Origin: a phage
Strand: one strand, 5' to 3'
Length of the DNA: 64,000 bases
Sequence record: OZ346212.1
Shown: positions 4,188-54,152 of the stretch, piece after piece
How the letters are laid out: each line of letters begins with the position of its first letter
Numbering within the stretch: the stretch's first letter is position 1
Position numbers and translations under genes: made by a program
Notes under the pieces: model-generated
The model's input: the letters and a program-made list of their open reading frames with translations, nothing else
What the model was told of the DNA's origin: nothing
Databases searched by the model: none

Positions 4188-4772
4188 ATGAAAATACTTC
4201 AAGAGTTTAAACTTTACCAACCAGGATCTGGCGAATACCACTCCAACAAGGAAACCAAGGAGCTGACCCCTCAAGAGGTAGAGGATTACACCGCATACAC
4301 TGGGTATTTTTTACGTAATGATGATGGTGATTGGTATGTGCAGTCACGAACATTACGACAAGAAAATCCAGGGTGTATCTTCCTACTTGTTGACGAGAAG
4401 GGAATTCTTAAGACATCTACAGAAGAACCTGATGCCTTATGGCCTGCTCCAGGTCTTCGTGTGGTTATCGCCAAAAAAGAAGAGGTACCAGAAAACATTA
4501 TGCTTCACCACGACGCTTTGCGTTTAGTTGGTGATGAATTTGTCACAGACAATGAATTCTTTGTTCAACAGGCAGAGGGTGTCATAGAGACAGAACTTGC
4601 TTGGGCTACTGCTAGAATTGGTGCCTATCAAGACATGATTGACCTTGAATATGATCTTACTGATGACCAGAAACGTAACATCAGAGATTTGAAAATGTAC
4701 AGGGTAAAACTTCTTGAAATAGATACATCTAAAGCCCCTGACATTTTCTTCCCAGAGCGACCTACCCTCTAA
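4188..4772 (+). CDS. tail fiber assembly chaperone (Tfa-like, 194 aa)
   Basis: C-terminal segment ...DLTDDQKRNIRDLKMYRVKLLEIDTSKAPDIFFPERP matches the conserved C-terminus of caudoviral tail fiber assembly proteins; lies immediately downstream of a fiber gene. Confidence 0.75.
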   Translation: MKILQEFKLYQPGSGEYHSNKETKELTPQEVEDYTAYTGYFLRNDDGDWYVQSRTLRQENPGCIFLLVDEKGILKTSTEEPDALWPAPGLRVVIAKKEEVPENIMLHHDALRLVGDEFVTDNEFFVQQAEGVIETELAWATARIGAYQDMIDLEYDLTDDQKRNIRDLKMYRVKLLEIDTSKAPDIFFPERPTL

Positions 4773-52698: not shown

Positions 52699-52944
52699 AT
52701 GAAAAGCAATAAAGGTTATAACGGTTACAAAAACAAAACTCATTGGAATGTAAGCCTTTGGATTAATAACGATGAGTCATTGTACCGGTTGGCCCAAGGA
52801 TTTATTAACGCTAATGCTAATCGTAATGATGCGGCGCGGGATATGATGCTTTTTCTGGAGCTAACCGGACAAGATAAGACCCCGGACGGCTTCAAGTACA
52901 GCACTACGGCGATCCGTGCCGCGATGGTTGGAATGAAACACTAA
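52699..52944 (+). CDS. hypothetical small protein (81 aa)
   Basis: SD AAGAAGAGG upstream; last + strand gene before convergent intergenic region. Confidence 0.6.
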   Translation: MKSNKGYNGYKNKTHWNVSLWINNDESLYRLAQGFINANANRNDAARDMMLFLELTGQDKTPDGFKYSTTAIRAAMVGMKH

Positions 52945-53259
52945 AAGCACATAGCCGCCAGATCTCAGAATTTACGTACGCTCACCAGTCTATAGCCTGC
53001 TAAGTATTTATTCCAACCATAGAATAACGGAATAGTCAATACCTGCATAAAATAATTATTCGTGTAAACTGCATAACATAAATCGGCTAGGATGTCAACA
53101 TTTTTCGTAAACAGCTCGAAATTATAACGGTGAGTTATAATAAACAGAGAAATCTTTAGTCGTCTAATGTTTACTGTACATTACTATACTGACTGGAATC
53201 ATTAGATGACTAAGAGAAAGATAAGAAATCATTAACAATGCAATTGTTTTATTCGTAAC

Positions 53260-53560
53260 AATAAGGCAACTATGCAAACGGATGGCATGGCGCGACGGAG
53301 TCGCGACATAATATAAAAGCAGTAACCATCACCCCCGTGATAGTTTGTCTGCAAACTATTAATCAGATCATAGTTGCCTTGTATTTAGTTAATCATGACA
53401 TAACAAGCAAGGCAACTATAGATCTGCTAATAGTTGCCCTGCTTTTATATTATGTCATAGATTATTAGCCTGTTAATTGTTAGTCAGTCAAATCAACAAC
53501 GTTATCATTTCAGTCTTTATTGTTGTTGATCGTTATTGTTATCATGCAAACGAATGGCAT
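53260..53560. repeat. repeat cluster in convergent intergenic region
   Basis: AAGGCAACTAT in forward (53262, 53411) and inverted (53372, 53432) orientation; hairpin TAGTTTG-tctg-CAAACTA; direct repeat TGCAAACG(G/A)ATGGCATGGC at 53273 and 53541. Confidence 0.6.
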
Positions 53561-53936
53561 GGCTTATCATTTTTGAGTAAACAATCTATACGTGAACAGT
53601 GAGGCAAGTTAGCAGCCGATAGATTAGATATTAACCTGCAGACTTCTGACCGTCTAGACGTCTAAACGCCCACACAACAAGGATTATACATACAATACTG
53701 AATGTAAACAGGGCCGCAAAAATGCTACCATACCACAGATTGTAAATTTTTCATGCAGCACTTGACAAAGAGGAGAACTTAATTTTATCAGGATAGGCAA
53801 GAATGTCAAGGCATGACTGCTCACTAAACAAGCAAACAGTCATGTGTGGGAGGTAAGTGATTGTGGTGGTAGGAAATTTAGTTGAAAGATGTGTTATAGG
53901 TGCTTCCAGCACTTTAGCCGGGCAGCTAATTGTGTG

Positions 53937-54152
53937 TCAGTCCAGCGGTTCATCCTCTACTTCACTGAAATCAATGTTCATGGTCTCTTCCCAACCATCG
54001 ATCTCAGCACAAGAGTGGAGTTCTTTAGGGTTTACTCCTAAAGCCTCAGCAACAGAGTCTATATTTAACACCTCTGGCAGGTATGATTCATCAAATTCAA
54101 GGTAAATCAGGCCACGAGTGTTGTCAGCTCCACCAAATATTTCTATCTTCAT
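53937..54152 (-). CDS. hypothetical acidic small protein (71 aa)
   Basis: SD GAGGAG upstream on - strand. Confidence 0.6.
   Translation of the reverse strand: MKIEIFGGADNTRGLIYLEFDESYLPEVLNIDSVAEALGVNPKELHSCAEIDGWEETMNIDFSEVEDEPLD

Follow-up and report, generated by a model that had tools for sequence, protein, structure and literature searches.

Convergent gene blocks and the genome-end gap

The 64,000-nt stretch of phage DNA analyzed here (hereafter the window; sequence record OZ346212.1) contains, at positions 52945-53936, a non-coding gap of about 1 kb on which two gene blocks converge and which carries a 152-bp composite palindrome next to a fragment of a phage terminal repeat. Over 22 kb, the window shares 94-96% identity with Murica (about 96%), navn, MaxTheCat and other phages, and thus represents a Vequintavirus (rV5-like myophage). 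The gap is bounded by the last gene of the plus-strand block (52699-52944; 81 amino acids, function not assigned; phrog_871, E value 3e-30; homologous to Murica gp159) and by the first gene of the minus-strand block (53937-54152; 71 amino acids, function not assigned; phrog_12108, E value 2e-52). The latter gene is found in 118 Vequintavirus records and is restricted to Vequintavirus, so that it provides no route to the equivalent gap of other genera. The original prediction, derived from the sequence alone, held that there is no credible open reading frame (ORF) between these two genes, and this is borne out: the six small ORFs in the gap (37-53 amino acids, with GTG or TTG starts) have no PHROG match, while both flanking genes do.

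In all relatives examined, two gene blocks converge in the same manner on a non-coding gap of about 2.5 kb that is usually left empty by annotators, most of the records carrying no annotation there. In the orientation of the window, the gap of the relatives consists of the last plus-strand gene, 340 bp with a terminator, a segment of about 0.5-0.65 kb that we denote part A, an array of 2 to about 12 TGTRAAC units, the direct terminal repeat (DTR) in reverse complement (459 to 1), a conserved 0.8-kb region U, part D with a strong leftward promoter, and the first minus-strand gene. The succession of part A, full-length DTR (opposite to the fragment in the window) and part D was observed in 15 of the 15 relatives with fetched DNA across the whole gap; isim, for which the DNA stops before part D, and ECP2303, for which it stops before the DTR, are outside this count.

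The 459-bp DTR, the limits of which have been determined for Gotham and EdH4, is annotated in Gotham (MT682716) at 1-459 and 136567-137025. The record of EdH4 (MK327930) starts (GGCGGACGGAATGGG) and ends (AAAACTTGTC) with the same bases as that of Gotham and has an exact 459-bp repeat at both ends; terminal redundancies of 458 bp have been reported for EdH4 and HdK5 (MK373780) (PMC6563267). KPP-1, which belongs to another genus of the same subfamily, has a 514-bp DTR with T7-type packaging according to PhageTerm (PMC9862379), and this DTR is likewise situated in a convergent gap. Because the Gotham-type DTR, and hence the physical genome ends, lies in the gap, several deposited records of the relatives begin within it.

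In the window, part A (52951-53606) is colinear with the relatives, with 85-99.8% identity in 17 of them. It corresponds to the Gotham record from 1164 down to about 567 and, in the relatives, begins about 100 bp inside the left DTR. The identity to pangalan is 99.8% up to 53458, and that to nom is 95% up to exactly 53606.

A composite palindrome within a near-invariant island

The repeat elements of the original prediction are all real, at positions that differ by 1-4 nt from those first reported. The motif GGCAACTAT occurs in both orientations in four exact copies in the 64 kb, all within 175 bp (53265 and 53411 on the plus strand, 53370 and 53430 on the minus strand), against 0.48 expected by chance, and none of 100 shuffles reached four copies. 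The longer 11-mer AAGGCAACTAT is found at 53263 and 53409 and in reverse complement at 53370, the copy at 53430 matching at 9 of 11 positions. Also present are the palindrome GGCAACTAT-N10-ATAGTTGCC (53411-53438), the hairpin ATAGTTTG-tctg-CAAACTAT (53341-53360) and the 19-nt direct repeat TGCAAACG(G/A)ATGGCATGGC, with copies at 53273 and 53545 (originally placed at 53541; expectation 0.00). In the repeat search, this direct repeat spans 20 bp on the plus strand, with copy 1 (ATGCAAACGGATGGCATGGC) at 53272-53291 and copy 2 at 53544-53563.

Beyond these elements, we identified a perfect 18-nt inverted repeat (53305-53322 and 53439-53456), two AACTAT-N10-ATAGTT units 60 bp apart, and six occurrences of (A/C)AACTAT within 170 bp, in alternating orientation, as hairpin arms. 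Neither the 20-bp repeat nor the 18-nt palindrome arms have further copies elsewhere in the 64 kb; in IMG/VR, four loci contain the 19-nt repeat, two of them unrelated, and these add little diversity.

The inverted repeats make up a 152-bp composite palindrome (53305-53456) with a perfect 18-bp outer stem that encloses a 9-bp inner hairpin (53323-53345) and a long inner hairpin (53352-53381 paired with 53408-53437). The predicted fold is very stable, with z-scores of about -8.3 for RNA on both strands and -8.9 for DNA, and the segment 53276-53475 is the strongest fold among 2553 sliding 200-nt windows in the 64 kb (GC-corrected z-score -5.2, the next unrelated one being -3.3). No homologue of the palindrome element was detectable outside Vequintavirus.

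The palindrome resides in a near-invariant island (53255-53458) in which variation among 18 phages is limited to 16 of 202 columns, compared with 27 of 43 in the immediate flanks. With 6-7 variable columns per 100, the island is also better conserved than the neighboring protein-coding gene, where there are 13-26. It contains every repeat of the original prediction except for copy 2 of the direct repeat. To the right of 53458, the relatives split into at least four unrelated sequence classes, so that this position is a mosaic boundary.

Within the palindrome, variable sites are found at 7 of the 28 unpaired and 8 of the 124 paired positions (Fisher p = 0.008, an approximate value given that the test ignores the relatedness of the phages); within this approximation, the avoidance of paired positions would point to selection on pairing. 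The changes at paired positions affect the weak apical helix or the ends of helices, or yield a G-U pair (one A-to-G change), and one change in the palindrome of slur16 repairs a mismatch. In phage C9 (locus L019, 2781-3060), a 33-bp insertion falls precisely at the apex of the long inner hairpin, in the loop, and all stems are intact.

The most drastic variant is FV3 (locus L020, 2790-2900), which has a single, hybrid copy of the 20-bp repeat and, compared with 53272-53563 of the window, lacks the intervening 252 bp, that is, the whole palindrome. Since the 20-bp repeats flank the module and FV3 retains one hybrid copy, the module can be lost by repeat-mediated deletion. Thus, the palindrome appears to be dispensable, unless the FV3 sequence lost it during cloning or sequencing, and its absence from FV3 fits an accessory or regulatory rather than an essential element.

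A predicted bidirectional terminator

On the plus strand, the right half of the palindrome comprises a predicted intrinsic terminator (53405-53456) in which a 15-bp stem formed by the GGCAACTAT arms is followed by UUUUAUAUUAU (-19.5 kcal/mol, z-score -4.5). Either the short hairpin (53405-53444) or the long one could form, and both end directly at UUUUAUAUUAU. The equivalent site in Murica (locus L003, 3983-4018) is annotated as a terminator. On the minus strand, the terminator scan predicts an intrinsic terminator at 53305-53345, with the hairpin AACUAUCAC-GGGG-GUGAUGGUU followed by ACUGCUUUUAUAUUAU (-11.3 kcal/mol, z-score -3.4), such that the hairpin is separated by a spacer of 2-5 nt from the same UUUUAUAUUAU tail. 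The tails of the two terminators are identical because both are arms of the 18-nt inverted repeat. Only the minus-strand site is reported by the scan because the 10-nt loop of the plus-strand hairpin is beyond its limit.

On both strands, a stem-loop is followed by a U-rich tract downstream of a gene, which is the sequence definition of an intrinsic terminator. The module is placed exactly where the plus- and minus-strand blocks meet, and between the end of the last plus-strand gene (52944) and the site at 53405-53456, the window contains no other plus-strand terminator. On the opposite side of the gap, there is a strong sigma-70-like promoter directed leftward (53782-53809, minus strand; TTGACA-16-TG-TAAAAT), with 11 of the 12 consensus positions and an extended -10 TG. 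This promoter is found at the same place in pangalan, within the best-conserved part of the relatives' gap.

Taken together, these features make it probable, as far as sequence comparison can tell, that the region is a shortened and rearranged Vequintavirus genome-end gap in which the palindrome functions as a bidirectional intrinsic terminator. For transcripts of the plus-strand block, folding of the GGCAACTAT hairpin would lead to a stop in the UUUUAUAUU tract near 53450. Transcripts running leftward, which would arise either from the minus-strand block or from the promoter at 53809-53782, would form the 53345-53324 hairpin and terminate in the mirror-image tract near 53315. With stops at these positions, the 3' ends of the converging transcripts would have an overlap of about 140 nt, and neither transcript would run into the opposite genes. 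The 20-bp direct repeats would serve as the substrate for loss of the module, as in FV3. Among the four functions that the original prediction had proposed for this region, a transcription terminus (envisaged there together with regulator-binding sites) is the one that is best supported, with a predicted hairpin and U-rich tail on each strand and an annotated terminator at the plus-strand site of Murica.

Several considerations weigh against a bidirectional terminator as the full explanation. The near-invariance of about 200 bp, tighter than that of the neighboring genes, exceeds the need of two terminators. A further point is that the hairpins have AU-rich stems and the U tracts contain interruptions. 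In KPP-1 and BME3, the palindromes found at the corresponding position have no U tails, which hints at a function other than termination. Furthermore, the palindrome folds equally well as DNA, so that the fold scores do not separate a role at the RNA level from one at the DNA level, and the sequences are 94-99.6% identical, so that there is no true compensatory covariation. A literature search found no Vequintavirus transcriptome.

An inverted terminal-repeat remnant and private junctions

Immediately downstream of part A, the window contains a remnant of the DTR (53607-53777, plus strand) that matches positions 282-450 of the Gotham DTR with 94.7% identity over 171 nt and is inverted relative to both flanks. 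The remnant is homologous to the experimentally delimited 459-bp DTR, of which it keeps 171 bp (37%), the other 288 bp being lost. In every locus mapped with the fragment (nom, NHEP1, Murica, Gotham, pangalan and naswa), its orientation is opposite to that in the window, and in 15 further loci the full-length DTR has that same relative orientation to part A, again opposite to the window. The entire 64-kb window lacks DTR positions 1-281 and 451-459, the spacer and the 0.8-kb U region. Neither DTR boundary, GGCGGACGG... at position 1 or ...AAACTTGTC at position 459, is present in the window, nor does the remnant have the orientation of the relatives' repeat.

At its left end, the remnant is joined to part A with an overlap of 1-2 nt after GGCA. 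The window from 53767 onward corresponds to part D, and the right junction (53767-53777) consists of 11 nt common to both partners (CAAAGAGGAGA). A third private junction, with a 9-nt overlap, is located at 52951-52959, where about 3 kb are absent compared with Murica (locus L003, 4476-7487), namely genes 151-158 and a terminator-containing non-coding stretch of 340 bp. Within the gap of the relatives, conservation is highest across region U and the beginning of part D (pangalan locus L008, 5750-6060), with 0-10 variable columns per 100; of this stretch, the window keeps only 53767-53855, everything downstream of the leftward promoter being gone.

In none of the 122 phage records was the DTR fragment of the window found colinear with its flanks there. 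The junctions of the remnant are absent from phage records, IMG/VR and Joint Genome Institute (JGI) metagenome contigs, and the 52951-52959 junction is absent from all phage records. Since the boundaries and the rest of the DTR are missing, the copy in the window cannot supply Gotham-type ends. Hence, the proposal that the region is a packaging site or contains DNA ends stands for the relatives, which have the 459-bp DTR in this same gap, and falls for the window, with its inverted copy of 171 bp that lacks both boundaries.

The arrangement in the window is either a private deletion-inversion or a wrong assembly. That the right third of the region, with the inverted DTR fragment and the deletions, and perhaps the 52951 junction as well, is an artefact of assembly or amplification is a serious possibility, one that falls short of being probable. 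Within 1 kb, there are three junctions that have no counterpart in 122-273 related records, IMG/VR or metagenome contigs, and both DTR boundaries are lost, although a phage with fixed-end packaging should need them. The inverted piece has short junction overlaps, 1-2 nt on the left and 11 nt on the right, and such overlaps are the usual signature of template-switch chimeras. However, these overlaps are too short to mislead a de Bruijn assembler, and deletion at microhomology combined with inversion also occurs naturally, through template switching in replication. The gap is, moreover, naturally rich in insertions and deletions, as demonstrated by the FV3 deletion, the C9 insertion and the range of 2-12 copies in the array, and the flanking sequence is otherwise clean, with its colinearity preserved.

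The TGTRAAC array, located in the relatives between part A and the inner boundary of the DTR, is iteron-like, with a period of about 15-16 bp. The copy number ranges from 2 in nom and the window to about 12 in typing phage 4 (locus L021, 3100-3290); in pangalan, the array occupies 4578-4675 of locus L008. The window has two units (GAGTAAACA and CGTGAACA; 53575-53600, plus strand), a short version of the array that resembles the one in nom. A possible role of the array is to bind a packaging or replication protein. Enrichment of the TGTRAAC and TTATCATTT motifs is restricted to relatives with longer arrays and is not seen in the window.

Alternative explanations for the palindrome

The palindrome, with its six (A/C)AACTAT motifs, might act at the DNA level, as a cis element for the formation of genome ends or the start of replication, which we consider unlikely. 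Such an element could be extruded as a hairpin or cruciform, could bind a phage protein next to the DTR, or could provide a fold-back primer for duplication of the repeat during concatemer processing. For T7, a palindrome-derived hairpin end has been proposed as an intermediate of concatemer processing, with a fold-back primer for duplication of the repeat.

In Gotham and EdH4, the palindrome is located 200 bp inside the left DTR, and structures of like topology, in which two or three hairpins are enclosed by a perfect outer stem of 15-21 bp, are found at similar positions in two other genera. In KPP-1 (Mydovirus), the compound palindrome is located 309 bp inside the DTR, with perfect 21-bp outer arms, several inner hairpins, a z-score of -8.0 and no U tails; in BME3 (Justusliebigvirus, from a different subfamily), a palindrome with perfect 15-bp outer arms, two inner hairpins, a z-score of -9.9 and no U tails lies 283 bp inside a 342-bp DTR. 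The left end of BME3 also contains a cluster of TAACTAT (6 copies compared with 0.9 expected), which parallels the six (A/C)AACTAT within 170 bp in the window, and conservation of the palindrome island beyond that of the neighboring genes is compatible with a role of this kind.

Against such a role, the palindrome is missing in its entirety from FV3, which is deposited as a complete genome, and the window retains the palindrome yet has lost the repeat boundaries that it would serve. The Gotham-type, KPP-1 and BME3 palindromes have no alignable sequence in common, so that their resemblance is positional only. The sample consists of three genera, and the BME3 record is messy, with Ns and an internal duplication. 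In this record (PP239276; loci L027 and L024), the final 872 nt consist of a second copy of positions 332-788 from its start, then Ns and then the 342-bp DTR, and the feature annotated as 'DTR-L' does not match the position of the true terminal copy; this end structure is probably a scaffolding artefact.

In a broader form, which we put forward as a doubtful conjecture, rV5-like and phi92-like myophages would share an undescribed cis DNA element, a T- or Y-shaped compound palindrome with AACTAT-type motifs located 200-310 bp inside the left DTR. This element would act in DTR duplication, packaging initiation or replication, either by folding back or forming a cruciform, or by serving as a landing pad for a protein, and the copy in the window would be stranded beside a broken DTR. 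There is no evidence for a second origin, another function named in the original prediction, FV3 being devoid of the whole palindrome. As for an iteron-type origin, the six (A/C)AACTAT motifs could recall a repeated initiator-binding motif, but they alternate in orientation as hairpin arms, and all of them are missing in FV3. A turn of the GC skew at 52-54 kb was discarded as a sign of an origin or terminus, as it coincides with the switch of the coding strand.

Separately from the palindromes, a motif of the type AATGAGAAT-N-TTATCATT(TG) is found in or next to the terminal repeats of the three genera (pairwise E value about 2e-4), namely in the Gotham DTR (locus L006, 124-165), in BME3 (locus L024, 53-87 and 1166-1240) and in KPP-1 (locus L023, 3741-3964). 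By our reading, this motif resembles the E. coli Fur box. The window lacks that part of the DTR; two TTATCATTT half-sites are left (53502 and 53564).

There is little probability that the module is, rather than mainly a terminator, a structured small RNA or an element for RNase III processing or stability in the converging 3' untranslated regions. The long imperfect hairpin with 30-bp arms is typical of RNase III substrates, and the fold is very stable (z-score -8.3). Upstream, there is a weak promoter-like pair, TTAACA and GTAACAAT, with a phage-variable spacer and, in our reading of the alignment, conserved hexamers. A related rV5-like phage, phiTE, expresses a non-coding RNA (PMC3475682). 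However, the promoter scan detected no conserved promoter upstream of the palindrome core, the sole minus-strand candidate (53476) having its -35 element in the variable flank, and the symmetry of the two strands suits a DNA palindrome better than a strand-specific RNA gene.

No Rfam family matches the module, either: with Rfam 15, there was no match at the gathering score in the window, with only sub-threshold noise from miRNA models in 52800-54000 at a permissive E value, and nothing in the intact gap of pangalan; the tRNA and tmRNA scan found none. The small RNA loci of the original prediction are unlikely. The Rfam 15 library, which we take to include a ToxI model, gave no ToxI-type match in the scans. 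A type III antitoxin-like array such as the pseudo-ToxI of phiTE, with head-to-tail repeats of about 36 nt (PMC3475682), was rejected, there being nothing tandem in this region of the window, where the sole 34-nt repeat consists of two copies 60 nt apart that are 76% identical and are each palindromic.

It is similarly improbable that the AAGGCAACTAT palindromes are operators for a dimeric regulator, of the phage or the host, that controls read-through or a local promoter. The four exact 9-mers in alternating orientation, the 60-bp separation of the two AACTAT-N10-ATAGTT units, which places them on the same face of the helix, and the invariance of the motif in 17 relatives would all agree with operators. 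The complementarity, with 30-bp arms and an 18-bp outer stem, far exceeds what an operator needs, however; the motif is found nowhere else in the 64 kb, and no candidate regulator is linked to it. A miniature inverted-repeat transposable element (MITE)-like origin was rejected, given that the arms are internal rather than at the ends of an element and that the repeat and the arms occur at a single locus in the 64 kb.

Other features of the gap and related records

Part A of the window also contains an imperfect 22-nt inverted repeat (53156-53213) that folds into a hairpin (z-scores of -3.7 on the plus strand and -3.0 on the minus strand) and to which no function was assigned. In pangalan, a small hairpin with a U tract follows the leftward promoter within about 20 nt (locus L008, 5965-5943); the promoter and this hairpin could produce a pyrimidine-rich RNA of about 40 nt or constitute an attenuator. 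A large non-coding RNA in the 0.8-kb U region of the relatives was considered and dropped, as its RNA structure is no better than that of shuffled sequences (z-score -0.4). About 20 records of the MG0656xx series, labeled 'Campylobacter phage' and UNVERIFIED, are 85-99% identical to this region of E. coli Vequintavirus and presumably are contaminant or mislabeled assemblies.

Implications and comparison with known systems

The interpretation in the original prediction is partly supported. What emerges is mostly ordinary and partly new: a convergent terminus with conserved predicted terminators beside the remains of a genome end, at a locus that is itself the known DTR region of Vequintavirus. 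Two loose ends of modest interest are the private rearrangement and the palindrome, with its unusual conservation and its recurrence in position.

In about 120 deposited Vequintavirus genomes, a gap of 1-2.5 kb is blank or filled with spurious small ORFs, and it can instead be labeled as a terminal-repeat region with a conserved predicted bidirectional terminator module. For users of OZ346212.1, for example as a therapeutic phage record, caution is warranted: either the record is misassembled or the packaging ends differ from those of the relatives. Should a palindrome acting at the DNA level across genera be real, it would offer a handle on end formation in myophages with short DTRs. To our knowledge, the formation of the ends of short-DTR phages is poorly understood outside T7.

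The closest counterpart of the locus is the concatemer junction of Gotham, EdH4 and HdK5, with the same convergent gap and flanking genes, 85-99.8% identity in part A and 94.7% identity in the remnant. The window differs from it in having only 37% of the repeat, inverted and without any boundary, and in lacking the U region. The nesting of the short terminator hairpin (53405-53444) in a longer hairpin that is completed only by read-through is reminiscent of retroregulation of the lambda tI/sib type, where the terminator is nested in a longer RNase III hairpin; unlike that system, the window locus presents no evidence of RNase III cleavage or antiterminated read-through.

The likeness to T7-type packaging lies in a DTR of a few hundred bp, a T7-type PhageTerm call in the same subfamily (PMC9862379) and a palindrome within a few hundred bp. 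The differences are that there is no sequence similarity to T7, that the palindrome is on the left-end side and that FV3 lacks it.

As a predicted bidirectional terminator, finally, the palindrome resembles the back-to-back rho-independent terminators of convergent operons, with a hairpin and a U-rich tail for each strand and mirror-image tails. It is set apart from the usual arrangement by the nesting of the two terminators in a single 152-bp palindrome, by the predicted overlap of about 140 nt between the transcripts and by far tighter conservation.

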